Of a stretch of 63,816 bases of DNA, positions 2,858 through 63,816 are shown piece after piece. The DNA lies in IMG/VR virus record IMGVR_UViG_3300032224_001028, positions 1 through 63,816 of that record; one strand, written 5' to 3'. The stretch comes from a virus (Duplodnaviria > Caudoviricetes). Positions within the stretch are counted from its first letter, which is position 1. Every line of letters begins with the position of its first letter. The notes under the pieces are model-generated. The model worked only from the letters and a program-made list of their open reading frames with translations. It ran no database searches and was not told the origin of the DNA. Both the position numbers and the translations under genes were made by a program.

Positions 2858-2898
2858 CTTGTCGGCGAAACAACAACAAGGTATAGGAGTAGATCTTT

Positions 2899-31117: not shown

Positions 31118-31199
31118 GTAACAAGTGTCACACGCAAATCTAATCAAATCAAATCGATAAGTGGCGGATTAAGTCACTATCATACAAATCTTACCCTTG

Positions 31200-42095: not shown

Positions 42096-43825
42096 GTCTG
42101 GATTCAGTAATCGAAACGAGTCCTGCTCTCTGGATGGCAACATCCGGAATCATTAAAAACAAGGCCGGCAATCTAGTTAGGCCCAAGCCGAATGATTTTC
42201 AGAAGTTCGTTTCGGAAGTGATTGAGTGGTGTATCGAAAATAACGAGCGTCCTAGAATAGTCATCCTTAAGCCTCGCCAAAAGGGATCCTCAACGGTTTC
42301 GTGCGCTTGCGTCTATACGTTCTTGCGTCGCTTCTCCGGAGCTAGGTGCGCCTTGATCGGGGATGAGTTGGATACGTCAAACAATCTTGCGGAAATCTTC
42401 AGCCGGTATGCAGACATGGACGATCACGCATGGGGCAACGAATGGCATAAGACTAAGTTGGCATTCTCAAACGATTCAAGTTGTCACAAGGAAACGGCAA
42501 ACGATCCACGGGCCGGCATGTCGTCCACCTTTCAAGTCGTCTTGGCGTCCGAGGTGGCACACTGGAAGAAGCGGGGAGAACGGAATGCCGAAAGCGTACT
42601 TCTTTCGATCCTGAATTGCGTACCCGATGAGCCGAAAACCCTAGTTATTGTTGAATCTACCCCGAACGGTGCGTCCGGTGCGTTTTATGAGAGGTGGCAA
42701 AAGGCAGTATGGTTTGAGGATTTCAAAAAAGGAAAGAAGGGGAACGGTTTCATCCGTGTCTTTTGGCCTTGGTATTCATTTGCGGATTCTGTCGAGACGT
42801 TGCCGGCTCAGAAAGAAGAGGAAATTAAGGAATCCCTCACGGATTCTGAGAGGAATCTGATGGGTTTGGGTGCGACGATACCGAATCTTGCATGGCGTCG
42901 CCGGATCGTGGGTGAGAAATGCGGTGGAGATGCCGAGCTTTTTAATCAGGAATACCCCACCGACGACGTTTCATGCTTCTTAACGTCTGGCCGGCCAAGG
43001 TTTGACCGGTCAGGGGTTGAAAGGATCGAGGTTCTTACCAGAAAGAAGCAGAGAACAGAGGGTGTTCTGGATCCTTCCGGTAATTCGGTTGTGTTCCGGC
43101 CTACCGGATCCGCCGAAGCGTGGCTATGGCTATGGGAAAAGCCTGAGTACGGTCGCCGGTATTTGATTGGTGTCGATACCATGACAGGGGCGAGTCAGGT
43201 AGCAGGATCCACAAGGGAGCCGGACTGTCATTCAGTGATAGTTTTGGCATCCGGAGCTTTCGTATTAGGCAAATGGATCCCGCCTTCCGTAGTTGGGAGG
43301 TTAAAACCACCTTGCAGGGTGGATATTGACGTTCTGGCCCTATTTGTGGACAGGCTTTCAAGGTTCTTTGGTGGTTGCATGGTCGTTCCAGAGGTAAATA
43401 ACTCCGGATTGGCCCTAATCGAACTACTTAAGGATGCTCAAACGCCGATTTACCAACGTGAAATCTTCAATTTACGTGAATCCAAGAAGGCGAAGGCACT
43501 TGGATGGCAAACAACCGAAAAGACAAGGACGCTAGCAATAGAAACACTAGCCACGGCAATCAGAGACGGGGATCTGGATGGTGGCGGAATCAATATCTAT
43601 TGCCCAAACATCCTTTCCGAACTTAAGACATTCGTAATTACGGACTCCGGCAAGGCCGAGGCGATGAGTGGGAATCACGACGACGATGTTTTGGCTTTAT
43701 CAATCGCAATAGCGACAATCGATGGCGCAACTCCCTATCTTGCACCGTCATCAACAAGAGGACTACCGAGAGATCTGCTCAACGCAGAGAAATCCATTCA
43801 GGCAAACCGCAGAAGCTATGCTTGA
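42092..43825 (+). CDS. terL: Terminase large subunit
   Basis: ILKPRQKGSST, LASEVA, VESTPNG, IGVD and HDDDV motifs. Confidence 0.92.
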   Translation: MSLDSVIETSPALWMATSGIIKNKAGNLVRPKPNDFQKFVSEVIEWCIENNERPRIVILKPRQKGSSTVSCACVYTFLRRFSGARCALIGDELDTSNNLAEIFSRYADMDDHAWGNEWHKTKLAFSNDSSCHKETANDPRAGMSSTFQVVLASEVAHWKKRGERNAESVLLSILNCVPDEPKTLVIVESTPNGASGAFYERWQKAVWFEDFKKGKKGNGFIRVFWPWYSFADSVETLPAQKEEEIKESLTDSERNLMGLGATIPNLAWRRRIVGEKCGGDAELFNQEYPTDDVSCFLTSGRPRFDRSGVERIEVLTRKKQRTEGVLDPSGNSVVFRPTGSAEAWLWLWEKPEYGRRYLIGVDTMTGASQVAGSTREPDCHSVIVLASGAFVLGKWIPPSVVGRLKPPCRVDIDVLALFVDRLSRFFGGCMVVPEVNNSGLALIELLKDAQTPIYQREIFNLRESKKAKALGWQTTEKTRTLAIETLATAIRDGDLDGGGINIYCPNILSELKTFVITDSGKAEAMSGNHDDDVLALSIAIATIDGATPYLAPSSTRGLPRDLLNAEKSIQANRRSYA

Positions 43826-48790: not shown

Positions 48791-51700
48791 ATGAGCCTAG
48801 AGAACATCTTCGATGACTCCAAGGGAGCTAGTCGCCTACCTGACTCTAAGAGCGTTGGGATCGACCCAGTTAAACTTGAGGATGTTAATTTTGACCCTAA
48901 AGAGGCGGATCCGGTGGAACCGACTGGTTCTGCCATGGCTTACGCTAGTCCGGTAAATCCAAACCCATCCGGAATCGATTTCAGGTTTATCAGGGATCCT
49001 TACGCCAGAAAGAACTTCAAGGGCGAGATCGATTACGCAAACAAAGCGGATCAATTCAATAGCAGGATTGAATCTGCTCAGGCCCAGCTAAAGGCTAGGG
49101 AAGAGAGAGCAAAGCAAGTAGCGGAGCTTAAGGCTCAAAAGCAACAGGAAGCAGATTTCAAGAAGGGAATGAATAGCGAAAAGGAAGGGCAATACAGGAA
49201 GGCAGGACAAAAGTTTTATACGGATGCTTTTGGTGACGTTCAGCCTCAAGTCAATGAAGAGAACAAGCCAATGTTTGAGCCTACTCCTTGGAAGATTCAA
49301 AAGGGGTTAGATGGGCGAAACGTAAAAACCCGTAGGAATGAGTTTGGGCAAATAGAGACTGAAGATCCTGACAAGGAAGCACCTATTGCAGAATCCAAGA
49401 TTAAACCAAACCAACTTTTCCGGAAGAACAAGCTATCGGAGGATCAATTTGTCGGAACAGTGGATGAAGGTCTTACCTCTGGTGACGAAACAATCCGAGG
49501 TGTGGCGGAACAGGCCAGAGAGAAGCAGAACGATAATCTTCTCAAAGAAACAAGGAACTCGTTTGTACGCCAAGAGCTTAAGGTTAAAGCAGATCTCGAC
49601 GATCATAAACTTCAGATGGCCCAGCTTGCCAAGGCGTCGCAGGAAAACGACATGCTTCCGGATTCGCCTGAGAAGCTAGCAAAGAAGGCTGAAATTGATA
49701 AGGCAATCGAGGACGGTGCGAAAAAAGCGCAAACAATTAGCGAATCACTGCTAGAGGCAAAAGCCCAGCGTGAGGATTTTGAGGCAAGCCAGAGTCTATC
49801 TGCATGGTCAAATGCTGAGAGGGCAAGACTAGATTTCTTGAGAAGCGACAGAGGCGCAGAATATCTAAAGCGAAAAGGAATTGATAGCCCTGAAAAGGAT
49901 CAGGTTTTAATTGATATTCGCAACAAGCTGAATGAGCAGGGCAGGAAAACCTTGGAGCAGTCTCAAAAAAAAACTGAAGATAGAACCCAGCTAGTCGGAA
50001 ACATGATGATTGACGGGGGGGCGCAACCCGAATCATCCAAAAAGAGTCCTGCTTTGCCGATGCAAGACACGGCCACGCTTAGAGAAGCCGATGACAAGTA
50101 CGAAAAACGGGTTAATGAAGCAAAAACGGTAGCAAACGAAATAGGCACAAAAGAAAATGAAAAAGTACGTGCATTATATTCGAATCTAAACGCTAGTGCC
50201 GATGCGGTTACTTCAATCGATAATCAACTCAAAGGATTGCAAGACCGGATGACGGAACTTAAGGCGATGACTGGCGGGAAGATGACTCCCGAAGTTGCCG
50301 GTCGAATCAATGCCTTGGCACAACAAGCAGAAAACCTTAACAAACAAAGGCAGGGGCATGTTGCCAAGTACGAGGAATCGAAGAGTATATTTGATAAGGA
50401 AGTAGGAACATTTGACGAGAAAGGCGGGTTCAAGTCGATTGGTACACGAATGGGGGCGATGTTTGACGCCCAACGCAGTCTTGAAATTGAAGCCAATAAA
50501 GCCGGACAAGAAAGAAACTCAGCCTACGAATCTTTACAGGCAAAGATCGAGCAACAGGCAAAGATTAAGCAGGATACTTTCAAGACAGTCGTAATGCCGA
50601 AGATCGATAGTGCGGTTCGGTCAATGGACGACAAGGCATTCGAGGCTTCAATGAAGGAAGCTACTGACCTTGGAATGGATAAGGAAGTTTCCGAATCGCT
50701 TCGGATGTACTACCAGCAAGCTAAGAAGAAGTATAACGGAAGCGATACAGATTTTTGGGATATGGATGTTTTCAACCTGATGCTTCGAAGTTCGCCGGCC
50801 ATGGGCATGCGTATGATTGGAGCTTTGGCAGATATTGTTGCTGGCGAGAACGATCCTAGAACTTGGTATGTCTTTGGTGAAACACACGAACAAAGGCAAG
50901 CAAGACTAACCTCGTTTGGCGGGGTTGGAGCAGAAACATTGTCACCGGACGTAAAGGCCGGATCCGTTTCAATGGGAATGGGTGACGGGGCAAGGGAAGT
51001 GAGTTTTGGGGAGCTTCTAAGAGAGGCAGAAAAAGCCAAGACAGGCAAATACGACAAGAATGCCGTTCCGGATCCATTTAATCAGGTAATGATTGGTGGA
51101 AGGACATACGATATTGGTACTACCAATTATTTTGTAAATAGCCTTCGCATGGCATCAGAGTATTTAAGAAAAGAAGCTAAAAATCTTGAAGAGGCTCTAC
51201 CGGTATCCGAACAGTTCCTATCAACGGACGTCGGGCAGTTTGCAAAAGGATTGGCAGAGCTTCCGGCTCAAATCGGGCCGGCATTTATTCCTTTTGTTGG
51301 CCCTGCGTTAATGGGAGGTACGGTTTCAGCAGGAATGTACGACGAATACATGCAGGATGCAGAACAAACTGCAATTAAGAACGGTACTGAGTTTGACAGG
51401 CTTTCGGCCCATCAGGGTGCATTAAACTATGTAGCAAAAGGCGCACCGGCTGAAATTGTCTCAAATCTATTAGAGATAAAACTTTTTAAGCTATTTAAGC
51501 CTTTGCTGAATAAAATTACCACAAAGGCACTTGCTGAAGCACTTGGCGGAACGGCAATTTCAGGACTTCTTGGTGGTGGCACTGAGGGATACCAGCAGTA
51601 CATGTTGAACCGCACCAAAAAGTATTTTGATAATATGCCAAATGTCGAACTCACAGATGATGTTTGGCAGAGCTTTAAGATAGGTGGAGCAGTGGAAATG

Positions 51701-54700
51701 TTTATTCCGGCTATGGTTGCCTTGGCTCAATCGGCTCAATCGCAAAACAAGAGATCTACTGATGTTCGTAAGATGATGGAGGATTTTGGGAAGGCTAAAG
51801 AAGAATCGTTGAATGCGCTTCCCGTTGGTCAAAGGGTTACAAATCCTGATCTTTCCGAATATACTCCTAAAGAGATAAGCAAACAGGAAACTAGATTAAA
51901 CTCCATTGATACACGGATTGCTTCTATCGAACTTGAGCTACCCAAGGCAAAGGGAGACAGGAAGCGGGATCTACTGAATGAGGGGGCGCAATTATACGCT
52001 CAAAGAAATCAGATTATCCCTACGGTTACTGTTGGTGCAGAGATGCAGAACCAGATTCAGGAAGAGCTTTCTAGGTTTCCGGCTCAGACCGTAACAGACG
52101 AAAAGGGCAAGGTTGTATCAGAAGCAAAGCTAGGCCCAGTACGGGCATTGGCTAAGTATGCCTCAGGAGCAGAGCTTTCGTTCGACGAAATGGCAGAAGA
52201 GCTTCCCGATGGATCTCCCGTATTCGGCAAAGACAAGAACGGGGCCGTCGTTGTGTCACAAAGGGCAATCGACCAGTATCGAAATACTGCCTCTACGATC
52301 TCTGCCCTAGCTCAAGGCAGGAGCGTACTGAACGCTCGGTCAATGCTTGAGGAAAAGCAGGATCAGCAAAAGGCAAAAACCACTTCAGTTGTCGCAAAAG
52401 ATCGCAAGGAGGAGTCCGGCAATCTGTTCAGGGTGCGGGTTACGGACACAGCAACGATGCAGGATCGTGAGGTAGATGTCCGTTCAGAATCTCCCGAAAG
52501 GGCTAGATTAACGATTGCGGGTAGTCCTAAGGATTACGGATTTGATGGTGGAATTAGGGTAGGGGAAGCAATCCCAGTGGGTGCGGGTGATAATAAACAG
52601 GGTGCAAATGTCGGCAAAGCGACAACAATGCCTCAAAATGCGTTCAGGAGGCCGATTACAGGCAAGGAAAGAACATCCTTGGTAAGATCCATTCTGGACG
52701 CCCCGCCTGAGCGTAGAAAGGCTTTACAGAAGATTTCTGAGTCCGTCGGTGGTCTTGTTGAAAACTACAAGAGCATGTTCGACTCGGTGGACTTCACCGC
52801 ACAGGACAATATCTCTGGTGGCGTACAGATCCGATTCTCACCTGACGGAAAGACAAGAAAGCTAGCGATTAGCCTTACCGGACTGCAAAGGGAGCTTCAA
52901 GGAGCCGAAAATCCCGATCAGGTACTTCTTGGGAAGTTTGTCGAGGAAGTTACTCATTCGGTTGGGGTTCAGGTTGTTTCGAGGGAGGAATCACAAAACA
53001 TTTCAAAAACGATGTCACCAAAACTCCGGAGAGCATTCGTTGATTCTTATTACGCATCAGAAAAATCCGCCGGCAAACAGGGCAAGATTAGCTCTGATAG
53101 CGCATTCTCTGGTGAGCTTACCGATTTAGAGCATTATGAAATAGGGCAAGAGTTCATACGAGCGATTGTCCAGAAGGATGAGCGTGTTTTGGGCTTCATG
53201 ACTGAAGAGGCTCAAACCAATCCGGAGTTTTTGCCCTACTTCATAAACGCACTTAAAAAGATCCTAGATGCGATAACTTCCGGTACGTACAAGATGGACG
53301 CTCCTTTAGCCAACGAAGCTAAAGAGCGAATCATCAGCATGATGGACAAGCTAGGAGCGTTAAACAAAATATCTGCGGATCGGGCGAAAATTGGCTATGG
53401 AAACAGTGCCAAGACAACCGACACTGCAACCGTTCAAGGGGTTCCCGCCACAGGATTACCTACTTCTGTTCCTCAGAATAGAAGTGGAGTTGGAACTGGA
53501 TCAGTTAGCCAAACGAATGAGGGAGGAACCACCGGAGCAAGTGGGTTGGCAGGATCTCCCGCTATTTCAACACAAGGACGTAGCTACAATGTAGCTACAC
53601 CAAAAAATACGATGAGCGTTCCCGTTCAAGGGAAACTCGTCGAATTGGGAGATCTAAAATCATCGGCTGGAACAAACCTTCAGCCACGGGATAGGACACG
53701 GGCGGGTAACAGGGAACAAGAGCTAAAAATTGCAAGGAATCCAAATCATGCGATGTGGGCTAGGCCGGCTTCAACTTCTGATACCGGTCTTACGATTGTA
53801 GGCAAGGATGGTCGTATTTATAGCGGTCACGGAAGGACAAACGCCAAGAACCTTGTCTATCAAATGGCCGAGACACCATCGGCAGATCAAGCATTAGGCC
53901 AAAAGAACGCTCAAGGGCTTAGGGATGAGATCAAGAACACGATGCGACAGATGGGCGAACCGGAATCGGAGATAGCAAAGGTCGATACAATGAAACGCCC
54001 CGACTACGTGGGTGTGTATCAGGGTGACGAGAATCCGAGCAAGATCCGGCAATTCGTCAGGGATTCAAACATCGAGGGGATGAGTGTAGCGGAACAAGCA
54101 TCATACGATGCGCTTGAGTTTATCGATAATCCCAAGCTGATCAGCAACCTACGGGCCGGATCGAATGGAGAGATACTTCTTAAGCGCAACGACAAGGTTT
54201 TATCAGATTTCTACAATGCAATCGGATCCCCTAGAGAGTTAAGGAAGAAAGATGGATCTTGGAGTAAGGCCATGGAAAGCAGGGTAATGGGCGCACTCAT
54301 GGCCCTTAACTTCGGTCAGAATAGCGATACTCTCATCACAACCCTTACGGAAGATGCTGAAAATCTCGGTCTTATTGGACTCCGTGCTGGACTTGTACAG
54401 GCTGGGCCTGATCTTGCGATTCTCGGTGATGGGGAATTGGACATTAAGCCAACCCTGACAAGGGCCGTGGAAGAGTTTGTTAAGTACAAAGAAAACGATG
54501 GGAAAATGGAGGACTTCTTAAGCCAAGGGAGACTCCAAGGGATTGAATCGGAAGCGTCACAAGAGACTGAGTTCATGATGAGAACCATCGCAGAGAATCC
54601 CACGGGCCGAGCGATTGGTGACTTCCTGAGAACCTATGCGGTTTCCGCAGTAGCCATGAAGCGAGAGCGTCAAGCCTACGGGGGTGGGATGTTCCCCGAA

Positions 54701-57700
54701 ACAGAAGTACCCCTCAATGTCATGGATGTTCTCAAAATGGCAACATCCATTGTATCAAAGGGTGATTCAACACAGACCCTTAGTAGTCCCGCAAGGAATA
54801 CCGCAGAGACGTTAGCCGGAAAACTTTCAGCATTTCTTGATCTTTCCAAGAATCCACAAAAGCAAAAAATCGCCCAATACGTTGCAAACTACCATAAAAA
54901 CGGTTTATACGGGCTAATCAATAAGATGCTTGAACCGGTTCCATCCGGAGCATCCCTGCCTCCTCAGGCATACCAATTTGAAGAGAGACTTGAGAAGATC
55001 CTTTCGGTTGGTGATCCGGCTATCGACATCACGCTTCCAGATGGCAACAAGGTAAAGCTGGACGGTGTAGGAGCAAGCAAGGTACTTGCGGGTTTCTTGG
55101 AAGGCGTAAGCAAGCAACAGGACAACTTTAGAGAACTGATTGGAAAGGTTACTGCCGGAAGAGACTGGGTTGCGCTAGTTGCCTCTCCCAAAAAGATGAA
55201 GAGGCTTGCCGAGAAAATAATTTTCGAAAAGAAGGGCATAGTTGCAGATGACGCAAAAGATATTCTTCGGGCCACGATTGCCGTCAATACATTGGATGAA
55301 ATGGATGAGGCGATTGCTGAAATCCAAAAATACGCAAGAGTAACGCAAGATAAGAAGAATCTTTATTTGGACACCGAGAACACTGGCTATGCCCACCGGT
55401 TAATTCTTATTCAATGGGACGGGTTAAATTGGGAGGCAGAAGTACAGATTAACTTACCCGAAATGTTGTTGGCTAAGGATATTGGACATCGTTTTTACGA
55501 AAAGATCCGTAGCCTTGAGGCTTTAGCTACAACTCTTCGAAATAATGAAGAAGTTCTGGCTATCGAACGTCAAATCGAAGAACTAAAAGAAAAGGTTAAT
55601 CAGGTTTGGCGAGGCGCACGGGACTTGATCACTAAACGCTTAAACGCATCCAAGGATCTTACCCGTGGAGCTTCAAACGTGGAGACAAGTGGAAATCGAG
55701 TAAGCGGAATATCATCGCAACGCCAAGCCCTTACTCCAAGTACTGCAACAGGGGTATCATCAACATCAAATAGTTCTGTTTTTGGATCCGAAATCAATTC
55801 TTCGAGATCCGGAGCCTTGGACGCTTCATCAGGTGTTGTTGGCATGACAACAATCAATAGCCAGAAATACGCAGTTCCGCAACCCGAAAGTATCGTTTAT
55901 GCAAATGTCGAGGATTTCAGGGGTACGGTGGATAGTTCTAGGTTGGCAAACGTTCCAGAAAACGAGGCTTCTCTTGGTACTATCTTCAATACAAAGGCAT
56001 CAGGATCATTCGTCGTTAAGCTAGATAAGCTGATTTCACCGGTAAATGAGCTTAACGACGAGGGATTTGTAGCAGGAAAGAAGGCGGATCCACGACAAAC
56101 AGCTATCAATCGCATGGTTTCAAACCTTGATGGAGAGACATTTACACCAAGAGAACCTATTGACCTTGCGGATAACGGTGATGGGACTTACACAATTATT
56201 GACGGAAATGCTACTGCCCAAGGACTTATGTTGGCAGGATGGCAAAATGCGGTTGGAGTTGTTAAGGAGTTTGCCCTTTCAGCCCCCCGTCGAAACACTC
56301 AAGACGCTAATCAATTAAGCCTATTTGACGAAACCGGAAGTGCTTCGGTGTTGTCAAACAGCAAACAAGGGGGTATTGAAAGTGGAGAACAATATGGACA
56401 ACCAAGAACAAGACAATCAACCGGAGAATCCGCCCAAACTCAGGACGGACTACGAGGGAGCGATGAGCTTTTTGGCGAATACGCCAACGGATCAACTCAA
56501 CCAACTAGCCAAGAATCCGGCACTCCTAGAGAAGTTTATTCTAGAGAGGTATCCGGAAACGGAATGGATTCAGTCGGACAACGAGGCGGAGTCGAGCCAA
56601 CAGGCGGAACTAGATCAGGAGACGGTGTACAAAGCGGAACGCAAGATGCTAATACTATCGACGGAGAATCCGGAAGAGTGGTCAGTAATCAAGACGGTGC
56701 TAGAGAAAATCTGCCCGTTCGATCTAAACCTACCGTAGAACGTCCTGCGGAGGGTTCGCCCGACAGAAATCACGAAATTGCCCCTGAGGACATACTTGCC
56801 CCAAGGGGTGACGTAACAAGACTCAAGACAAACATATCGGTAATTAAACTACTCAAGCAACTTGAGTCAGAGGACAGGAATGCAACGACTGAAGAGAAAA
56901 AGATCCTAGCTCAGTACGTAGGATGGGGTGGTTTGTCACAAGCCTTAGATGAAGATAAAGCAGAAAGAGCAAGTGACATGGATTTTCAGCGACGATACAT
57001 GGATGAGGAAACAATTAAGTCGATTGAAAACTGGAATAAGAAATACGGTAAGTATTACACTGAAGTAAAAGACCTTCTTTCTGAGGATGAGTTTAGATCT
57101 GCAAAGGCAAGTACAACTAATGCCCACTATACGTCGCCTCAGGTCATTAAATACATGTGGGATGCGGTCAGGAAACTGGGATTCGATGGCGGAACAGTAC
57201 TCGAACCCGCCGGTGGGGTTGGTCACTTCTTTGGGCTAATGCCGAAGGATATGGCCGATGCGTCCTACACAAAGGCCGTCGAGCTTGACTCTCTATCCGG
57301 AAGGATCATGCGGAAACTCTATCCCGAAACCGACGTTCAGATCACAGGATTTCAGGATGCAGAGATTCCTGATAATTCTATCGACCTTGCCATATCGAAC
57401 GTGCCTTTTGCCAATGTTGCAATATACGATGCCGGCCTTGAAGCGCAGGGTGCGCCCAAATTGTCACTTCATAACTATTTCTTTGCCAAGGCACTTGAGA
57501 AGGTTCGGCCCAGCGGGGTTATAGCCTTTATCACAACAAGCAATACTCTGGACGCCAACGTTGCTCAGAGGAAATGGATTGCAGACCACGGGGAACTAAT
57601 TGGCGCAGTAAGACTTCCAAACACTGCATTCAGCGAAAATGCAAATACAGAGGTCACCACGGACATTATTTTCATGAGAAAGCCGGACGGCAAGATGCCT

Positions 57701-60700
57701 AGCTTTAGTCCGGAGTCATTCAAAAGCACAAAAGAAGTGCCACTAGAGAACGGTGGAACAGTTAAGATCAATGAGTACTTCGCAAGCAATCCCGACATGA
57801 TTCTTGGCCGACTTGCCAACGACGGATCTATGTACGGGGGCAAGGAAGAGATGACGGTACATCCTTTTCAGGATGGCCGAACATTAGAGAGCGTTCTTAG
57901 TCAGTCCCTAGAGAAGTTGTCCGGAGACGTAATGGGCCAGAGCAAACCGGTCAATATGGACGCAGTAAGAAGCGAAGAAGCGATGAGGGGCAAGAAGGTT
58001 GGGACTCTGGCGATGCTTGAGGACGGGAAACTTGGCATAGCCGGAGTAGAAAACTCGGATGAAGAAATCCTTAGTCCAAAAAATCGGCCTATTGCCATGG
58101 GATTCATGCAAGTCAGGGACGCCCTGAATGAATTGTATCGGATGGAAATGGATCCGGAATCTCAGGACGCCGAGATTGAAGATCAACGGAAGGCACTAAA
58201 TGTTGCCTATGACAACTTTGTGGCACGGAATGGATCATTCCATGCAAATAGTAAGCTATTAGACTTTGATCCTGACTATTACCGGATCATAGGAGCCGAA
58301 AATGAGGTAAAGTCTGATAGCAAGGCCGAGAACGTTAAGAAGTTCCTGACTAGGAAAAAGAACTACACAAAGGGTGATATTTTCACAAAGCGGATCCTCA
58401 CCCCAAGGCAGGAGCCTACTTCTGCTTCATCCGTTGAGGATGCTATGGGCATATCCCTTGGATGGAAAGGCACTCTCGACACCGACTACATCGCCGGATT
58501 GGTTGGCAAGTCAAAAGAGGAGGTCGAGAAAGACATTCTTGGCAAGGGTATTGGGTTCAGGGATCCATCTACCGGTCTTGTGTCCACAAAGGAAGAATAC
58601 CTGAGTGGCAACGTAAGAAAGAAACTTAAGATAGCCGAGGAAAAGGCCAAAAAAGACAACAGTTACGAGGCAAACATTGAAGCATTAAAGAAAGTGCAAC
58701 CGGTGGATGTGCCATTCTCCGACATATCAATGAACCTTGGGGCGAACTGGATCCCGACGGACATTATTTCTGACTTTGGTAGAAGCATACTCAAGACACG
58801 GGTTACAGTAACGTACAGCAAGGGGGTCGGGGATGTTTCTTCAGATAGGTACACGGTTACTTACGGATCCGACGGCAAGGGCGCAAGATCAATGGCCGAT
58901 CTTCCCTCAGAAGCCACAAGCATCTACGGCACGGATAGAATGTCAGGAGTTCGACTGCTTGAGATGGCACTTAACATGCAAACGCCGATGGTATTTGACA
59001 CAATCGACGAAAAGAAGGTTTTGAATGCCGGTGAAACCGAAAAGGCAAAACTTGCCATGGAGAAGATCAAGGAATCTTTCGCCCAATACGCATCATCCAA
59101 GCCTGAAGTTTCTGAAGAACTCGCAAAACAGTACAACGAGAAGCGGAACTCCCATGCGTTACGTCAGTACGATGGTCAATTCCTCACATTCCCGTGGCTT
59201 GCTAAGGGATACGACTTATATCCAGACAAAAAGAACGTGGTTTGGAGGGCTATTCAGGACGGCAAAATGCTTATTGCTCACGGGGTTGGAGGAGGAAAGA
59301 CGGTCATCGGCACTGCTTTGACCATGGAACTTCGTCGCCTTGGACTAGCCAAGAAGCCGATGATCGTTGTCCATAACGCTACTTTGGAACAGTTTGCCGG
59401 AACGATTGGAAGAATGGCCCCGACTTCCCGTGTCCTTGTTGCCCGTAAAAAAGACTTCGAAAAGAGCAAGCGAAAGGAGTTTGTGGCGAAAATAGCCTCA
59501 GGAGACTGGGATGCGGTCGTGATGGCCCACTCAACATTTAACCAGATCAAAGACGATCCGGAATACGTAAAAAAGATTACCTATGAGCTTATAGATGAGC
59601 TTCGGGATGCAATCACTCAAACCATGAGTGAAAGCAACGAGGTGAGTCGTTACGGCAGGATCTCCAAAAAGAAAGATCCATCCGTAAAGGAGAAGGAGAA
59701 GCAGATCAAGAGGCTCGAAGAAAGACTCAAGCGAGTACAAGAGCGCAAGGTCGATGATGTCCTTACGTTCCAAGAACTAGGGGTGGACGCTATTATTCTG
59801 GACGAGGCGCATATCTACAAAAAGATGCCTTTCGTAACAAAGCTAAAGAATATCGCCGGCATCGATAATTCGCCCACCGAATCAGGAACAAGCTTATTAA
59901 CCAAAGCACGATTTATTCAGGAAAAGAACAAGGGCCGGAACATCTTCACGATGACTGGCACACCGGTAACAAATACCCTTGGTGAAGTTTGGAATCAGGT
60001 TCGCCTTATCGATCCCGAACTATTGGCCGAGTTTGGTTCATCTAGCTTTGATTCGTTTGTTTCTACATTTGCAGAGGTAGAGAGAAGTGCAGAGCTAAGG
60101 GCCAACGGAAAATATAAGAGCATCCAACGTCTATCGAAATTGGCTAACTTGCCTGAGTGGAACAAGATGTTCCGGACTAGAGCAGACGTCAAGATGGGCG
60201 GGGATATGGTCGTAAAGAACCGGCCTGAAATCAAAGATGGAAAACCTGACCTTATTGCGGTCGAGGCAACTCCTCAGGTAATCGAATACAAAAAGATTAT
60301 CGATAGAATCATCGATGATTTTGACAGCATGGATGGACGAGAAAAGAAGGAAAACAGTCATATTCCGCTAGTTACTTACAATGCTTGCAAACTTGCATCA
60401 ATCGACATGCGTTTGGTGGATGACAAGGCAAAGGATGAGGCGGGAAGTAAATCAAACACCATGATTGAAAAGGTGTTCGAACTTTACAAGAGAACGAATG
60501 ATTACAACGGAACCCAAGTAATCTTCTCTGATCGTTACCGGCCCATGAAAACGGAATCCTTGTCATTCAATGGATTGGATTCGGGCGTTGAAACTGATGA
60601 CAGTGAAGATTCGGGAATGGATCTTATTTCTGGTGCAAAAGAGGAAGAAAAAGAAGAGCGTGAAGCGGAATCCATGGGCGGATTCAACCTTTATACAGAC

Positions 60701-63700
60701 ATCAAAGAGAAGCTGATCAAAAAGGGAGTAAAGCCTGAAGAGATTGCAATTATTAACGATTTCAAGACCGATCAAGCAAAAGAGCAGTTATTCGAGAGGG
60801 TGAACAACGGAACTGTTCGTATCATTATCGGATCGACACAAAAGCTGGGAACTGGCGTGAATATGCAAGGCCGGATGATTGCCGGACATAACTTGGACGT
60901 GCCTTGGACTCCGGCAGAGATGGAGCAACGGGACGGGCGGGTAATCCGTCAGGGCAACATTCACTCAGAGCTTGGCATACCGGTCGAGATCTACCGGTAC
61001 GGTATGAAGGATACGTTGGATTCGGCCCTTTGGCAGAAGCTAGAGTTTAAGGAAAGATTCATTAAACAGGCATTGAGTGGCAAGATTAGCGGTCGTGTCA
61101 TTGAGGATGATTCGGGGCTACTCAGCCTAGCAGAGCAAAAGGCGATCTTGTCCGGCCCGATGGGGCTTGAGAAGTTTAACACCGAGACAAAGATCCGTGA
61201 GCTAGAAAATCAGGAACGGGCATGGGTGCAATCATCGTTCGATGCGATTCAGGCCGGCAAGACTGCCGAGCTTCAGGTTAAGGCATACGAAAACAGGCTT
61301 AACCAGACAAGGGAGTTCCTAAGCGAAGTATCAAACTGGACGCCTGAGCCTACGGCCATGATTGAAGGCGTAGCATTAACGAAAGAAAACGACATCCGTG
61401 ACGCTATTCAGGAGTACTTTGATAAGCGCAGAGATCAGGCCATCCAAACCGGAAAATCGTTCCGAGCATCAGTAGAAGCAAAGAAGCCTTTGGGAGAATT
61501 TACATACAATGGAACAAAAATAACTCTTTCGCCAGCTTCAGTAGATGAAGTGCTAGGTGAACCGGATCCCAAGAAAGCCATTAAGGTAGAAACCGGCGTC
61601 ATGGTCAATGGCCGTGACTTGGGTGCAAAGGTAAAGAGCGCAGGATACGTCGTGAGCGCATTAAGGGATCTCGTTAAGAACCTTAAGAGTTATGAGCAAC
61701 AGTTTATCAACGGCATGGGATCGGCCCAAGAAACGGCAGATTCAGCGACAATCGCATCCTCCAAGGCATTCCCAAGGAAGGAAGAGCTAGATGGTCTTAG
61801 AGCTAAATACGCTAAGATCATGGAGGATTACACGGACAAGGGTAAGACAAATAGGGTTGAAGCAGAGCAAATGCAGTTAAACGCTCCCGCCCTTACGCCA
61901 AGCAAGGCAAGCCTACTCTCCAAAGATGCTATGAACCTGATCGAGCCTATTGCTAGGTCGTTCGTTTCCCCGCAGACATCGCTAGACGAGGCTATTCAGA
62001 TTGGCCGGATCGCACTCATCAAAGCAGTGCAGGGATTCGATCCGAATGCCGGTGATTTTGATAAATACGCAAAGGCAGTAGTTCGGAACGCACTTAAAAA
62101 GAACTACTCAAGGAACGAGGCGTCGGCCCGTGAGATCTCCATGAGATCCATGAACATTGACTCTCCGGTGTCCGGAGAAAGCACGGCCCCGCTGGGTAGC
62201 ATCATTCCGGACGAAAACCAGAGCTTGCCGTCGCAGTCGGCGATTACAAACGACGCACAGAGGCTCATGCAAACCATGATTGACGGACTACCGGTGCGCC
62301 CACGGACGGTTGTATCGGCATACATGAACGGGGAAGGGGTTGCCCAAATCGCAGAAAAGATGGGCATTTCCCGCCAATACGCTTTGACGATGCTCAACAA
62401 TGCTCTCTCAGTACTCCGGAAAAGGTTGGCAAAGGTCGGGATCGAGGAAACCAAGGATCTCATCTCCGGATCCACACGGGAGATTATATCCAGACTGAAC
62501 GCACCGTTAAGAGCAATCACAACGGAAGAGGAGAAGGCTCAGGCCGAGTATCTCACCGAATTGGCCCAAAGCAGAGGATTGACGTTGGATCAGTTTGCCA
62601 CGGAAAGAATCGATGAGTTCCTAGATAGCGCAAAGGCATGGAGACAGGCGCATCCTATTCAAGATGATGACATGCAAGTACTTGGGGCTTCAAATAGGCG
62701 CATCAAATCAAAGTTCCTCACGCCAGTCAGCAAGAGATATGAGGCAGAACAGTTTGAACTAGCATTCGTTAAATCAATGGTAGAGGTGGCAGACAAAGAC
62801 CAAGCCGGAAAGCAGGACATGTCAGAAGAAGGCAAAGCATATCTAATCGATGTCCTTGCCGAGTATCTAGCGTCGAAAACGTCTTTGGATGAAGTGGCAA
62901 AGGGGCAGATCCAGACAGATAAAAGCTTAGATAAATACCCCGATCTCAAGTGGTCTTTTCAGAAGTTTGGTAAAATTGCAGATAAAAACTCTGCGTTTTA
63001 TGATCTCAGTCAGGAGAACAACAAGAAAATATGGGAAGCATATAAACTGCTTGAACAGAACGAAAATAACTCAGTAATCGCATTCGAAAACGACCAAGGC
63101 GACAAACTTCTAGTATCTAAAGCAATAATCAATCCTGAAGATAATGTCGGAATAAATGACTACAACTATAAAGAAGTTCCACTCACAGATTTCAGAAACA
63201 CCGCATACCGACTTACAAAATACACAAGCAGTTTTGGAATACTCGGTGCAATTACAAACCCAACGACAGTAATTACCCCCGAAGGAGACAGCATTACACC
63301 GGCTTGGCATTCATTCTTTCCAAATAAAACTCAGGCAGTGATGAGTGCGATGGGCATAAAGAACCCGCAAAGGGAGACGTACGACGATTACAAGCCTATG
63401 GAATCCTTATTCTCTCCCAGTCGGAATCCAGACATGGATGCAGTTGAGGAGTACATGGACTATCTAGGTAAAGAGTTGCCTGAAACGAATGAGCTAATCA
63501 ACAAGGCAGATAACGAACGTAACAGATTCAAAATCACAGGAAACCCAACGCTAGCCAACCCCGCTAAGGGCATGGGGCGCAACCTAGTGAATGCAGTGGA
63601 TGAGGCTCGAAAAGACATACTGCAACGCCGGCCAGACGTTATCGTGATGGCCGAGGCCCGTGCGCTACTCGCAAATGACGAGGAAGGCGTAAAGCGCATG

Positions 63701-63816
63701 TTGCTCGAAAGGGCAGTGGATCCATCCCAAGCCGGACTGCCTACCGACGTAGAGGTGCGATCCGCCAAGTTGCTTGTCGAAAAGCTGGCACGTAGGGCCA
63801 TGACTTCGGGCGACGA
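48791..63816 (+). CDS. Giant polyvalent protein (~5,919 aa including 1..2857), N-terminal and central part
   Basis: ATG at 48791; the ORF track reports no ORF in this frame, so no stop occurs before the window end; hand translation gives several coherent domains; frame continues into 5..2857. Confidence 0.9.
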   Translation, partial: MSLENIFDDSKGASRLPDSKSVGIDPVKLEDVNFDPKEADPVEPTGSAMAYASPVNPNPSGIDFRFIRDPYARKNFKGEIDYANKADQFNSRIESAQAQLKAREERAKQVAELKAQKQQEADFKKGMNSEKEGQYRKAGQKFYTDAFGDVQPQVNEENKPMFEPTPWKIQKGLDGRNVKTRRNEFGQIETEDPDKEAPIAESKIKPNQLFRKNKLSEDQFVGTVDEGLTSGDETIRGVAEQAREKQNDNLLKETRNSFVRQELKVKADLDDHKLQMAQLAKASQENDMLPDSPEKLAKKAEIDKAIEDGAKKAQTISESLLEAKAQREDFEASQSLSAWSNAERARLDFLRSDRGAEYLKRKGIDSPEKDQVLIDIRNKLNEQGRKTLEQSQKKTEDRTQLVGNMMIDGGAQPESSKKSPALPMQDTATLREADDKYEKRVNEAKTVANEIGTKENEKVRALYSNLNASADAVTSIDNQLKGLQDRMTELKAMTGGKMTPEVAGRINALAQQAENLNKQRQGHVAKYEESKSIFDKEVGTFDEKGGFKSIGTRMGAMFDAQRSLEIEANKAGQERNSAYESLQAKIEQQAKIKQDTFKTVVMPKIDSAVRSMDDKAFEASMKEATDLGMDKEVSESLRMYYQQAKKKYNGSDTDFWDMDVFNLMLRSSPAMGMRMIGALADIVAGENDPRTWYVFGETHEQRQARLTSFGGVGAETLSPDVKAGSVSMGMGDGAREVSFGELLREAEKAKTGKYDKNAVPDPFNQVMIGGRTYDIGTTNYFVNSLRMASEYLRKEAKNLEEALPVSEQFLSTDVGQFAKGLAELPAQIGPAFIPFVGPALMGGTVSAGMYDEYMQDAEQTAIKNGTEFDRLSAHQGALNYVAKGAPAEIVSNLLEIKLFKLFKPLLNKITTKALAEALGGTAISGLLGGGTEGYQQYMLNRTKKYFDNMPNVELTDDVWQSFKIGGAVEMFIPAMVALAQSAQSQNKRSTDVRKMMEDFGKAKEESLNALPVGQRVTNPDLSEYTPKEISKQETRLNSIDTRIASIELELPKAKGDRKRDLLNEGAQLYAQRNQIIPTVTVGAEMQNQIQEELSRFPAQTVTDEKGKVVSEAKLGPVRALAKYASGAELSFDEMAEELPDGSPVFGKDKNGAVVVSQRAIDQYRNTASTISALAQGRSVLNARSMLEEKQDQQKAKTTSVVAKDRKEESGNLFRVRVTDTATMQDREVDVRSESPERARLTIAGSPKDYGFDGGIRVGEAIPVGAGDNKQGANVGKATTMPQNAFRRPITGKERTSLVRSILDAPPERRKALQKISESVGGLVENYKSMFDSVDFTAQDNISGGVQIRFSPDGKTRKLAISLTGLQRELQGAENPDQVLLGKFVEEVTHSVGVQVVSREESQNISKTMSPKLRRAFVDSYYASEKSAGKQGKISSDSAFSGELTDLEHYEIGQEFIRAIVQKDERVLGFMTEEAQTNPEFLPYFINALKKILDAITSGTYKMDAPLANEAKERIISMMDKLGALNKISADRAKIGYGNSAKTTDTATVQGVPATGLPTSVPQNRSGVGTGSVSQTNEGGTTGASGLAGSPAISTQGRSYNVATPKNTMSVPVQGKLVELGDLKSSAGTNLQPRDRTRAGNREQELKIARNPNHAMWARPASTSDTGLTIVGKDGRIYSGHGRTNAKNLVYQMAETPSADQALGQKNAQGLRDEIKNTMRQMGEPESEIAKVDTMKRPDYVGVYQGDENPSKIRQFVRDSNIEGMSVAEQASYDALEFIDNPKLISNLRAGSNGEILLKRNDKVLSDFYNAIGSPRELRKKDGSWSKAMESRVMGALMALNFGQNSDTLITTLTEDAENLGLIGLRAGLVQAGPDLAILGDGELDIKPTLTRAVEEFVKYKENDGKMEDFLSQGRLQGIESEASQETEFMMRTIAENPTGRAIGDFLRTYAVSAVAMKRERQAYGGGMFPETEVPLNVMDVLKMATSIVSKGDSTQTLSSPARNTAETLAGKLSAFLDLSKNPQKQKIAQYVANYHKNGLYGLINKMLEPVPSGASLPPQAYQFEERLEKILSVGDPAIDITLPDGNKVKLDGVGASKVLAGFLEGVSKQQDNFRELIGKVTAGRDWVALVASPKKMKRLAEKIIFEKKGIVADDAKDILRATIAVNTLDEMDEAIAEIQKYARVTQDKKNLYLDTENTGYAHRLILIQWDGLNWEAEVQINLPEMLLAKDIGHRFYEKIRSLEALATTLRNNEEVLAIERQIEELKEKVNQVWRGARDLITKRLNASKDLTRGASNVETSGNRVSGISSQRQALTPSTATGVSSTSNSSVFGSEINSSRSGALDASSGVVGMTTINSQKYAVPQPESIVYANVEDFRGTVDSSRLANVPENEASLGTIFNTKASGSFVVKLDKLISPVNELNDEGFVAGKKADPRQTAINRMVSNLDGETFTPREPIDLADNGDGTYTIIDGNATAQGLMLAGWQNAVGVVKEFALSAPRRNTQDANQLSLFDETGSASVLSNSKQGGIESGEQYGQPRTRQSTGESAQTQDGLRGSDELFGEYANGSTQPTSQESGTPREVYSREVSGNGMDSVGQRGGVEPTGGTRSGDGVQSGTQDANTIDGESGRVVSNQDGARENLPVRSKPTVERPAEGSPDRNHEIAPEDILAPRGDVTRLKTNISVIKLLKQLESEDRNATTEEKKILAQYVGWGGLSQALDEDKAERASDMDFQRRYMDEETIKSIENWNKKYGKYYTEVKDLLSEDEFRSAKASTTNAHYTSPQVIKYMWDAVRKLGFDGGTVLEPAGGVGHFFGLMPKDMADASYTKAVELDSLSGRIMRKLYPETDVQITGFQDAEIPDNSIDLAISNVPFANVAIYDAGLEAQGAPKLSLHNYFFAKALEKVRPSGVIAFITTSNTLDANVAQRKWIADHGELIGAVRLPNTAFSENANTEVTTDIIFMRKPDGKMPSFSPESFKSTKEVPLENGGTVKINEYFASNPDMILGRLANDGSMYGGKEEMTVHPFQDGRTLESVLSQSLEKLSGDVMGQSKPVNMDAVRSEEAMRGKKVGTLAMLEDGKLGIAGVENSDEEILSPKNRPIAMGFMQVRDALNELYRMEMDPESQDAEIEDQRKALNVAYDNFVARNGSFHANSKLLDFDPDYYRIIGAENEVKSDSKAENVKKFLTRKKNYTKGDIFTKRILTPRQEPTSASSVEDAMGISLGWKGTLDTDYIAGLVGKSKEEVEKDILGKGIGFRDPSTGLVSTKEEYLSGNVRKKLKIAEEKAKKDNSYEANIEALKKVQPVDVPFSDISMNLGANWIPTDIISDFGRSILKTRVTVTYSKGVGDVSSDRYTVTYGSDGKGARSMADLPSEATSIYGTDRMSGVRLLEMALNMQTPMVFDTIDEKKVLNAGETEKAKLAMEKIKESFAQYASSKPEVSEELAKQYNEKRNSHALRQYDGQFLTFPWLAKGYDLYPDKKNVVWRAIQDGKMLIAHGVGGGKTVIGTALTMELRRLGLAKKPMIVVHNATLEQFAGTIGRMAPTSRVLVARKKDFEKSKRKEFVAKIASGDWDAVVMAHSTFNQIKDDPEYVKKITYELIDELRDAITQTMSESNEVSRYGRISKKKDPSVKEKEKQIKRLEERLKRVQERKVDDVLTFQELGVDAIILDEAHIYKKMPFVTKLKNIAGIDNSPTESGTSLLTKARFIQEKNKGRNIFTMTGTPVTNTLGEVWNQVRLIDPELLAEFGSSSFDSFVSTFAEVERSAELRANGKYKSIQRLSKLANLPEWNKMFRTRADVKMGGDMVVKNRPEIKDGKPDLIAVEATPQVIEYKKIIDRIIDDFDSMDGREKKENSHIPLVTYNACKLASIDMRLVDDKAKDEAGSKSNTMIEKVFELYKRTNDYNGTQVIFSDRYRPMKTESLSFNGLDSGVETDDSEDSGMDLISGAKEEEKEEREAESMGGFNLYTDIKEKLIKKGVKPEEIAIINDFKTDQAKEQLFERVNNGTVRIIIGSTQKLGTGVNMQGRMIAGHNLDVPWTPAEMEQRDGRVIRQGNIHSELGIPVEIYRYGMKDTLDSALWQKLEFKERFIKQALSGKISGRVIEDDSGLLSLAEQKAILSGPMGLEKFNTETKIRELENQERAWVQSSFDAIQAGKTAELQVKAYENRLNQTREFLSEVSNWTPEPTAMIEGVALTKENDIRDAIQEYFDKRRDQAIQTGKSFRASVEAKKPLGEFTYNGTKITLSPASVDEVLGEPDPKKAIKVETGVMVNGRDLGAKVKSAGYVVSALRDLVKNLKSYEQQFINGMGSAQETADSATIASSKAFPRKEELDGLRAKYAKIMEDYTDKGKTNRVEAEQMQLNAPALTPSKASLLSKDAMNLIEPIARSFVSPQTSLDEAIQIGRIALIKAVQGFDPNAGDFDKYAKAVVRNALKKNYSRNEASAREISMRSMNIDSPVSGESTAPLGSIIPDENQSLPSQSAITNDAQRLMQTMIDGLPVRPRTVVSAYMNGEGVAQIAEKMGISRQYALTMLNNALSVLRKRLAKVGIEETKDLISGSTREIISRLNAPLRAITTEEEKAQAEYLTELAQSRGLTLDQFATERIDEFLDSAKAWRQAHPIQDDDMQVLGASNRRIKSKFLTPVSKRYEAEQFELAFVKSMVEVADKDQAGKQDMSEEGKAYLIDVLAEYLASKTSLDEVAKGQIQTDKSLDKYPDLKWSFQKFGKIADKNSAFYDLSQENNKKIWEAYKLLEQNENNSVIAFENDQGDKLLVSKAIINPEDNVGINDYNYKEVPLTDFRNTAYRLTKYTSSFGILGAITNPTTVITPEGDSITPAWHSFFPNKTQAVMSAMGIKNPQRETYDDYKPMESLFSPSRNPDMDAVEEYMDYLGKELPETNELINKADNERNRFKITGNPTLANPAKGMGRNLVNAVDEARKDILQRRPDVIVMAEARALLANDEEGVKRMLLERAVDPSQAGLPTDVEVRSAKLLVEKLARRAMTSGD
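52700..53370 (+). other. Domain: zincin-like metallopeptidase variant
   Basis: FVEEVTHSV (EExxH) at ~52940 and a downstream GQEFIRAIVQ helix. Confidence 0.45.
53406..53594 (+). CDS. Candidate overprinted gene (+1 frame) in giant-ORF linker
   Basis: CTGCGG-N16-CTATGGAAACA-GTG; host frame is a T/G/S linker here. Confidence 0.45.
   Translation: MPRQPTLQPFKGFPPQDYLLLFLRIEVELELDQLAKRMREEPPEQVGWQDLPLFQHKDVATM
53580..54700 (+). other. Domain: DdrB-like ParB
   Basis: LQPRDRTR...Q...IA...TSDTG..IVGKDG..YSGHGRT. Confidence 0.75.
55100..55620 (+). other. Domain: RelA/SpoT nucleotidyltransferase (toxSAS-like)
   Basis: KKMKRLAEK, KDILRATI, TGYAH, EVQI and AKDIGHRFYEKIR motifs. Confidence 0.8.
55600..55845 (-). 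CDS. Candidate antisense-overprinted gene (81 aa), possible antitoxin
   Basis: MPTTPDEASKAPDLEELISDPKTELFDVDDTPVAV...; TTGCGG-N17-TATTGA upstream; sense frame is an S/T-rich linker. Confidence 0.6.
   Translation of the reverse strand: MPTTPDEASKAPDLEELISDPKTELFDVDDTPVAVLGVRAWRCDDIPLTRFPLVSTFEAPRVRSLDAFKRLVIKSRAPRQT
55900..56275 (+). other. Domain: ParB/sulfiredoxin-like
   Basis: PREPIDLADNGDGTYTIIDGNAT. Confidence 0.65.
56382..56738 (+). CDS. Candidate overprinted gene (+1 frame; GTG 56382 or ATG 56394)
   Basis: TGTTGTCA-N17-TATTGAA promoter motif; GGAG RBS; helical acidic product. Confidence 0.65.
   Translation: MENNMDNQEQDNQPENPPKLRTDYEGAMSFLANTPTDQLNQLAKNPALLEKFILERYPETEWIQSDNEAESSQQAELDQETVYKAERKMLILSTENPEEWSVIKTVLEKICPFDLNLP
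56760..57930 (+). other. Domain: DarB-like N6-adenine DNA methyltransferase
   Basis: YVGWGG, NAHYT, VLEPAGGVG (57203), VELD and ISNVPF (57398) motifs. Confidence 0.9.
58000..61250 (+). other. Domain: DarB-like SNF2/SF2 helicase
   Basis: AHGVGGGKT (~59280), DEAH (59801), TGTPVTN, GTGVNMQ and EQRDGRVIRQGN motifs. Confidence 0.9.
61889..62460 (+). other. Domain: sigma-70-family factor (regions 2 and 4)
   Basis: LIEPIARSF..SLDEAIQIGRIALIKAVQGFDP..FDKYA...VRNAL; LPVRPRTVV...GEGVAQIAEKMGISRQY....NNALSVLRKRL. Confidence 0.85.
63694..63816. repeat. Terminal direct repeat (assembly overlap), copy 2
   Basis: Identical to 1-123. Confidence 0.97.

Follow-up and report, generated by a model that had tools for sequence, protein, structure and literature searches.

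The 63,816-nucleotide stretch analysed here (the window) is the whole of IMG/VR virus record IMGVR_UViG_3300032224_001028, and one very large gene in it encodes a synthetase (pyrophosphokinase) domain of the RelA/SpoT superfamily that resembles the enzymes Tas1 and Apk (55067..55657, plus strand; residues ~2093-2289 of the giant protein). An earlier note on this DNA, made from the letters alone, had proposed that this domain is a toxic small alarmone synthetase (toxSAS) and that its antitoxin is encoded on the opposite strand of the linker directly behind it. Our analysis points elsewhere for the second half of that proposal. We think it likely that the Tas1/Apk-like domain is carried as one module of cargo in a DarB-like polyvalent protein of 5,919 residues, made by a freshwater phage that is probably temperate and has an SU10-type portal, that the linker is an ordinary one and that the open reading frame (ORF) antisense to it is a shadow of the sense codons.

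The synthetase domain

The sense-frame motifs on which the synthetase assignment had first been based (PKKMKRLAEK, DILRATI, GYAH, EVQI and GHRFYE, at 55100-55600) are all present, as is the Ser/Thr/Gly-rich stretch that follows them. An exhaustive HMMER search of 1.84 billion representatives found 341 homologues of the domain at E<=1e-3 and five at E<=1e-10, the best of them 35-40% identical, and at least 23 of the 150 homologues listed were proteins of 2,000 residues or more. Nine residues were invariant in a 44-sequence alignment of this family (K51, R55, K59, D74, R77, E134, Q136, K146 and Y153), and the window keeps all nine together with the further conserved motif residues G116, Y117, H150 and R157, while deviating at two nearly invariant positions, D119 (His in the window) and G130 (Asn). 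When the profile of these 44 sequences, the window's own included, was searched against the Protein Data Bank (PDB), Tas1 (6ox6_A) was matched with an E-value of 3e-32, and the next match, the best (p)ppGpp synthetase, reached 7.4e-5; for one homologue searched alone (P0014), Tas1 was the only match (E 3.4e-7). An AlphaFold2 (AF2) model of the domain had a predicted local distance difference test score (pLDDT) of 87.3 and a predicted template modelling score (pTM) of 0.82, and a Foldseek search with it returned 61 PDB chains at E<=1e-3, of which RelP, RelQ, Tas1 and CapRel stood first at a match probability of 1.00. The modelled fold is that of an alpha/beta nucleotidyltransferase of the small alarmone synthetase type.

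Several direct family searches weigh against this assignment. The Pfam family RelA_SpoT (PF04607) matched the window domain with an E-value of 0.004 and 17.9 bits, below its cut-off of 27, although this match reaches from profile position 3 to position 96 (of 113); the domain was missed at E<=1 when all six frames of the genome were searched with this profile, and phmmer with the window domain alone found no match among PDB sequences. PHROGs, NCBIfam and PADLOC likewise gave nothing significant for this piece. Of ten homologues scanned, three passed the RelA_SpoT cut-off and three more matched below it, and one of the ten also carried a near-threshold Phage_Mu_F domain. On the family profile and the modelled fold, we regard the domain as a genuine member of the RelA/SpoT synthetase superfamily, in its Tas1/Apk-like branch, in agreement with the toxin-type assignment of the earlier note. 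It belongs to an already known kind, as a further member carried in a DarB-like protein.

Judged by its conserved residues the domain appears to be a catalytically intact pyrophosphokinase, and by analogy with Tas1 its acceptor would most likely be an adenine nucleotide and its product (p)ppApp. In the available text of PMC12226406, 'RYT' in the syn2 motif marks Apk-type enzymes and 'AVR' the (p)ppGpp enzymes, and in syn3 GxN is Apk-type and SxH (p)ppGpp-type. The window's syn2, DILRATI (D-x-x-R-x-T), agrees with the Apk-type R-x-T or 'RYT'. Its syn3 speaks less well for this branch: it reads H-R-L, aligned with G-V-N of Tas1, and is neither GxN nor SxH, so the acceptor is not readable from the motifs. 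The same text also describes that swapping the syn motifs left the specificity of Apk2 unswitched (PMC12226406), and motifs alone therefore do not predict the product.

These two observations are also points in favour of an active domain with a different acceptor, either the 3'-CCA ends of tRNA, as with toxSAS enzymes of the FaRel2/CapRel type, or a guanine nucleotide, giving (p)ppGpp. Two CapRel chains (9erv_A and 7ztb_B) and (p)ppGpp synthetases are, in addition, among the Foldseek matches of the domain at a probability of 1.00, and alarmone-like signalling has been proposed for RelA/SpoT domains by Iyer et al. (PMC5512222, available text). We hold this to be possible, with the chances clearly on the other side, because the family profile matches Tas1 (3e-32) far better than it does any of the (p)ppGpp synthetases (7.4e-5 or worse), and because CapRel does not appear among the matches when the family profile is searched by sequence. 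The PADLOC defence models, which include CapRel-type toxSAS, gave no match for the domain either.

Two distant giant orthologues (P0159 and P0161) no longer have the E-x-Q glutamine and have also lost further conserved positions of the synthetase, whose module may, in some lineages, be in decay or shifting in function. Such losses, together with the window's own departures at D119 and G130, would fit a catalytically dead module with a structural or nucleotide-binding role. We consider that improbable for the window, which retains every one of the nine invariant family residues, including D74 and E134, which we take to be the metal-binding residues; the D, E, K, H and Y positions are moreover invariant across six giant orthologues, and Tas1, in the profile alignment, is also without Asp at the D119 position.

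The linker and the frame antisense to it

Translation places a Ser/Thr/Gly-rich interdomain linker, poor in Tyr, His and Gln, at 55658..55887 on the plus strand (one Tyr, no His and five Gln in 100 residues). Both its sequence and its length vary among orthologues, with deletions across the would-be N-terminus of the antisense product in the distant ones, and sense identity within it falls below that of the flanks in three of three locus pairs, making it the fastest-evolving part of the region. It is an ordinary flexible interdomain linker. A DNA contig of a relative, from run X5, aligns on both sides of this region and has two blocks of the same length as the window's (55500-55579 and 55689-55784) that are too diverged to be aligned, which indicates local hypervariability or mosaicism in the C-terminal helix of the domain and in the linker.

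The 81-residue antisense ORF of the earlier note (55845-55600) does exist. It lies in a minus-strand open frame across the linker (55600..55857) that gives 85 residues from a TTG at 55857 and 81 from the ATG at 55845, and that measures 98 codons from stop to stop (55896-55603). The remark that its composition is unusually protein-like was also correct: when all of the giant gene's antisense stretches of 60 codons or more are compared (47 in number), its D+E+K+P fraction is the highest (0.276, against 0.065-0.228 in the others) and its composition is the nearest to that of the phage proteome (rank 1 of 47). In this phase the wobble positions of the two frames coincide, and each antisense codon is the complement of sense position 2, sense position 1 and position 3 of the preceding codon. 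TCN-Ser, Thr, Gly and Ala codons read in reverse as Asp/Glu, Val, Pro and Ala, and Ser, Phe and Leu abound in the shadows that ordinary Glu/Lys/Leu-rich sequence casts; the protein-like composition of the ORF thus arises because it is the deterministic codon complement of a Ser/Thr/Gly linker. Antisense stops are possible only where a Tyr codon follows a codon ending in a pyrimidine, or a His or Gln codon one ending in T, and the frame is open because these residues are scarce in the linker.

The length of the ORF is equally well accounted for. It ranks 11th of the 148 open stretches in its own frame of the giant gene, and in a null model of 2,000 synonymous-codon permutations of that gene the numbers of stretches expected were close to those seen, both for at least 85 codons (16 observed, 15.6 +/- 2.3 permuted) and for at least 98 codons (11 observed, 10.65 +/- 2.2 permuted); this particular stretch was still open in 32.7% of permutations. 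We then compared three close loci (94-98% protein identity) and six distant ones (L008, L009, L010, L011, L012 and L018), the latter sharing the domain-linker-domain plan and collected without bias as to the linker. An open stretch of 76-98 codons in the same phase crosses the linker in all three close and all six distant loci, and an ATG would give a product of 72-83 residues in five of the six distant loci. Synonymous resampling gave probabilities of 0.30-1.0 for simulated openness at least as great as that observed in all eight loci tested, the window and the six distant ones included, so the conserved openness is what the amino-acid composition of the linker predicts. By these statistics the antisense ORF is no more than chance provides, and we read it as a shadow ORF.

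Signals for its expression did not set it apart. The hexamer pair TTGCGG-N17-TATTGA, which the earlier note had offered as a promoter of the ORF's own, is present (55854..55882, minus strand) and is no promoter by our criteria, as it matches the consensus at three of six positions in each hexamer, a chance-level pair; a scan of 54000-57000 with a threshold of at least 9 of 12 consensus positions reported neither this pair nor any other minus-strand site, and found one plus-strand site compared with 3.3 +/- 1.7 in shuffled sequence. A Shine-Dalgarno (SD) core (GGAG, GAGG or AGGA) at -20 to -4 is absent at both antisense starts, and precedes 15 of 27 plus-strand gene starts of the phage. In two related loci among the distant ones, L008 and L012, a well-placed SD-like purine run does stand before the ATG; it is the complement of the Pro/Ser codons of the sense peptides 'TPSPT' and 'PSPLT'. 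The remaining distant loci have no such run before the start of the long ORF; the only one in L009 stands ahead of an internal ATG, whose product would have 35 residues. Contigs of 90-95%-identical relatives from metatranscriptome libraries X15 and X16 cover 55498-56100 and 55676-55953; as contigs they reveal neither strand nor transcription, could derive from DNA and have no bearing on the antisense ORF.

The earlier note had also suggested conservation of both frames as a check, and the frame is indeed open in nine of nine loci, to the extent that composition predicts and with no sign of added constraint. Of the substitutions that separate the window from close relatives inside the ORF (n=26), a fraction of 0.62 is synonymous in the sense frame and 0.62 in the antisense frame; the corresponding values in the flanks, taken in the same shadow phase (n=661), are 0.73 and 0.61. 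Sense-synonymous wobble changes were also antisense-synonymous in 13 of 15 cases inside and 379 of 461 outside (Fisher p = 1.0). In the three locus pairs compared, the ORF region has diverged more than its flanks in either frame, and the ratio of antisense to sense identity, at 0.99, 0.96 and 0.94 inside compared with 0.97, 0.89 and 0.98 outside, is not consistently raised. No extra constraint on the second frame is seen in these 26 substitutions and three locus pairs, a sample that gives the two-frame test low power in a phase that is intrinsically hard to test: as sense position 3 is also antisense position 3, dual-frame conservation among close relatives cannot discriminate between the readings.

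Searches with the antisense product itself found nothing in Pfam, PHROGs, NCBIfam or PADLOC. Among 5.8 billion proteins, of which only those of 46-149 residues were searched, two gene calls matched it (P0153 and P0154, 87% and 74% identical), from relatives whose longest contigs are 721 and 2,588 bp. Both are mirror copies, which came to light only because these relatives have the frame open as well. An AF2 model built from three sequences showed a small alpha/beta fold of moderate confidence, with a pLDDT of 69.4 (48 to 69 over the five models) and a pTM of 0.55; Foldseek gave no PDB match for it at E<=1e-3 (best E 1.7, the immunity chain of Tas1 not being matched), and phmmer against the PDB gave a chance-level match only (E 0.53). 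Co-folding of the synthetase domain with the antisense product scored 0.42 (runs 0.68, 0.39 and 0.42), with 0.00 for the best of three controls; at least 56% of contacts are common to the runs, and the partner has a pLDDT of at least 80. In calibration, 58 of 80 solved complexes attained this mark, as did 2 of 110 mismatched pairs, and passes with a score of 0.60 or under comprised only seven of the solved complexes and both of the passing mismatches, counts that are approximate for our case, in which custom alignments were used. The co-folding check, the single dissenting result, is accordingly a weak pass at a level where mismatches pass as well, and for a guess that was not likely from the start a pass of this kind is wrong in more cases than it is right. 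Combined with a very small prior, it leaves an antitoxin highly improbable.

The alternative can now be weighed as a whole, namely that an immunity or antitoxin protein is truly overprinted in the 81-residue ORF and blocks the synthetase domain by binding to it, perhaps in lysogens or against superinfecting relatives. Speaking for it, and so against a mere shadow, are the co-folding score and the confidence of the AF2 model, the frame being open in all nine related loci with an ATG in most of the distant ones, the purine runs of L008 and L012, the most protein-like composition of the 47 stretches, and the fact that gene callers called the frame on two short contigs. The phage also has an integrase gene (below), and an immunity role in lysogens is not absurd; an argument that a lytic phage needs no immunity was dropped when this gene was found. 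On the other side, length and openness are as synonymous permutations predict, the composition is the linker's codon complement, the window's ORF is without SD or promoter, its substitution patterns are those of shadow frames, the linker it overlaps is the least conserved part of the region with indels over the would-be N-terminus in distant orthologues, and its product has no family, PDB or fold match, the Tas1 immunity chain included. The known Apk immunity genes are, furthermore, separate downstream genes (PMC10083569, available text). With length, composition, signals, substitutions and homologue searches all unsupportive, we judge the nested antitoxin of the earlier note very unlikely. 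A broader version, in which the Tyr/His/Gln-poor linker is kept open across a family of ~6,000-residue polyvalent proteins so as to overprint a small acidic immunity protein, expressed from the prophage and neutralising the injected synthetase of the phage itself or of superinfecting relatives, strikes us as just as unlikely.

The giant polyvalent protein and its neighbourhood

On the sense strand the synthetase domain is a small part of its protein. The record, a complete phage genome, is bounded by direct terminal repeats of 123 bp; its completeness is estimated at 100, and the genome measures 63,693 bp. According to the ORF list and the translation, the first 5,008 codons of the giant gene lie at 48791..63816 (plus strand) and leave the window's end into the repeat, and the same frame continues through the repeat with the C-terminal 911 codons (124..2857, plus strand) to a stop at 2857. 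Joined, the gene has 17,760 nt and encodes 5,919 residues, or 27.9% of the genome.

Many unrelated domains are combined in this one polypeptide (ddrB-ParB, the RelA/SpoT domain, the DarB-like region, SNF2/Helicase_C and sigma-70 region 2). Its residues 1-1,600 (48791-53590) matched no Pfam or PHROG family; by eye they contain long coiled-coil-like Lys/Glu-rich stretches and a hydrophobic segment. A ddrB-like ParB domain follows (53606..53923, plus strand; PF18763, E 2.3e-13, 50.8 bits against a cut-off of 27.6), and then the synthetase domain and the linker. Directly after the linker, invariant columns in six orthologues delimit a conserved domain with DPRQTA and DGNATAQ motifs that forms the N-terminal part of the DarB-like region (55888..56270, plus strand). 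The motifs DPRQ.A and DGNATAQ..MLAGW are invariant at this place in all giant orthologues. No Pfam family matched 55888..56270 at E<=10 apart from noise, and the match to phrog_10089 begins inside it, at ~56075; the domain may be LPD36, which the available text of PMC5512222 describes as preceding the methylase.

The DarB-like antirestriction region proper, with an adenine methyltransferase and an SNF2-type helicase, extends over 56075..61927 on the plus strand (phrog_10089; SNF2-rel_dom, ResIII and Helicase_C), and the phrog_10089 match, 'DarB-like antirestriction', covers residues ~2429-4380 with E-values of 7.2e-120 and 0 (1031 bits). Behind it stands a part resembling sigma-70 regions 2 and 4 (61937..62374, plus strand), in which region 2 is above its cut-off (PF04542, E 9.3e-8, 32.2 bits against 24), region 4 is below (PF08281, E 1.6e-4, 21.7 bits against 25.7), and phrog_1740, a sigma factor family, matches with an E-value of 2.6e-5; one source names orthologues of the giant protein 'RNA polymerase sigma factor'. 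The C-terminal 911 codons (124..2857) matched no Pfam family and contain a weak internal-virion-protein-like stretch at ~2051-2302 on the plus strand (phrog_6651 'internal virion protein', E 7.6e-8), the sole hint of virion packaging. Pfam found no PAAR or Phage_Mu_F match in any part of the giant protein.

A word-indexed search for orthologues at E<=1e-3 found eight giant proteins, seven of which (P0155-P0161) have 5,832-7,001 residues and are 94%, 76% or 31-35% identical to the window over the synthetase region. The domain-linker-domain plan is common to the six orthologues aligned. In a further metagenome locus, L017, a DGNATAQ-type domain (2585-2944) precedes a RelA/SpoT-like domain (3284-3601), the opposite of the window's order, which suggests module shuffling within the family.

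The gene sits in a head and packaging block, surrounded by terminase, portal, capsid and adaptor genes. A terminase-like gene lies upstream (42092..43825, plus strand; phrog_24361, E 9.4e-15), the portal gene begins directly downstream (2899..5001, plus strand; PF23899 SU10_portal, E 2.5e-29; phrog_1216, E 1.1e-25), 42 nt after the giant gene's stop, and the capsid gene (10407-11906) and an SU10-type adaptor gene (12252-12938) are further downstream of the portal. The earlier note's placing of the toxin in a virion polyprotein is borne out as far as this block and the internal-virion-like C-terminal part suggest. A tyrosine integrase gene on the minus strand (30038..31147; PF00589, E 7.1e-10, 34.4 bits with the cut-off at 27.1) makes a temperate lifestyle probable. 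Near-identical DNA occurs in runs labelled as freshwater or lake metagenomes (by label only, habitat labels of small-share runs having been left out). Annotated phage records gave DNA matches in two only, with 3-4% of the query covered, and a tblastn search of such records matched two, both of a single Bordetella phage, at 27.9% identity, with no context gained. No tRNA genes were found in the whole genome.

Two smaller genes in this neighbourhood deserve mention. Between the portal and capsid genes, an unusual site for a sugar-modifying enzyme, lies a 145-residue cupin of the WxcM/FdtA sugar-isomerase type (8835-9272, plus strand; Polysacc_synt_C, E 4.6e-15; FdtA, E 2.9e-8). Just upstream of the giant gene is an ORF of 114 residues with a good Shine-Dalgarno motif (48212-48556, plus strand) that matched nothing in Pfam, PHROGs or the PDB; this is a more conventional location for a chaperone or immunity partner, and we considered it as an alternative immunity gene.

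From its domains the giant protein is a DarB-like phage-type polyvalent protein, and by analogy with DarB of phage P1 it is probably injected with the phage DNA. Taking P1 DarB and Tas1/Apk biology as guides, we infer a scheme in which the giant protein would be synthesised late, loaded into the head and expelled together with the DNA. Once inside a new host cell, the synthetase domain would attach pyrophosphate taken from ATP to the 3'-OH group of an acceptor. Its homology to Tas1 makes an adenine nucleotide the most likely acceptor and (p)ppApp the product; the nucleotide pools, transcription or defences of the host would be disturbed for a time, and the incoming DNA would meanwhile be guarded by the adjacent methyltransferase-helicase part.

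Comparison with known systems

If the enzyme is active, this would be another phage with a Tas1-type nucleotide pyrophosphokinase as injected cargo, here with the pyrophosphokinase, a DarB-like antirestriction machine and a sigma-like module fused in one protein whose gene accounts for 28% of the genome. The reason for which phages send enzymes of this type into cells on whose survival they depend is described as still open (PMC10083569, available text). The copy described here is internal and apparently intact and its acceptor motif diverges, which makes it a candidate for product identification, and the sigma-like module, if delivered, would be noteworthy in its own right. There is also a lesson of method: in the phase in which wobble positions coincide, Ser/Thr/Gly linkers yield long, acidic, protein-like and foldable-looking shadow ORFs, and since these arise automatically, composition and openness alone are not evidence of overprinting. 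Were the antisense reading true, it would amount to a toxin-immunity pair nested in antisense inside a virion protein gene; we have not met such an arrangement in the Tas1/Apk, toxSAS and polyvalent-protein literature, in which no search was aimed at it.

With the type II toxSAS modules (FaRel, FaRel2, PhRel, PhRel2 and CapRel; PMC7229694 and PMC11782079, available text) the domain shares the RelA/SpoT-superfamily fold, CapRel being a structural match. In contrast to them, the window has no small stand-alone toxin, no adjacent co-oriented antitoxin gene and no PADLOC match, the sole candidate partner being the antisense frame, at which no expression signals were found; its system is not a toxSAS toxin-antitoxin module.

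The carrier is best compared with the phage-type polyvalent proteins of Iyer, Burroughs, Anand, de Souza and Aravind (2017, PMC5512222), to which, in the available text of that paper, the RelA/SpoT domains of polyvalent proteins are confined; these domains are proposed there to set off an alarmone-like response in the invaded cell. DarB of phage P1 is given there as the archetype of those with a methyltransferase-helicase dyad. Common to them and the window are a very large multidomain protein encoded in the late/packaging block, the methyltransferase-SF2 helicase dyad (phrog_10089), ddrB-ParB and a RelA/SpoT module. The window differs in size (5,919 residues, 28% of the genome), in the Tas1-like branch of its RelA/SpoT domain and in its sigma-70-like region, the word 'sigma' being absent from the main text of PMC5512222; by Pfam, its giant protein has no metallopeptidase, MuF or LPD domain.

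The closest relatives of the domain itself are Tas1/Apk1, a PAAR effector of the type VI secretion system (T6SS; PDB 6OX6), and the MuF-fused Apk2, which make (p)ppApp from ATP and are toxic, and whose immunity proteins, a binder of the Tis1/IapK type and the hydrolase Aph1, come from separate downstream genes on the same strand (PMC10083569 and PMC12226406, available text). For the window, the Aph1-type hydrolase family PF13328 HD_4 is absent from the genome, and no Tis1/IapK-type immunity gene is recognisable after the giant gene, behind which the portal gene stands. In comparisons made without a Tis1/IapK profile, neither the antisense ORF nor the upstream 114-residue ORF has a significant PDB sequence match, and the model of the antisense ORF has no fold match. 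The domain is not an Apk1 or Apk2 as these are defined, because there is no PAAR or MuF domain: its carrier is a DarB-like polyvalent protein, its position is internal rather than C-terminal, and its syn3 is H-R-L rather than GxN. A list of 2,959 Apk1/Tas1 homologues exists (PMC12691689), and the family may already stand in it or in the polyvalent architecture files of PMC5512222. What the window has in common with Tas1/Apk1 and Apk2 is the family profile, the fold, the R-x-T of syn2 and the fusion of the domain to a delivery or carrier part, and with Apk2, as far as the available text describes it, also that the enzyme is phage-borne and encoded near head genes.

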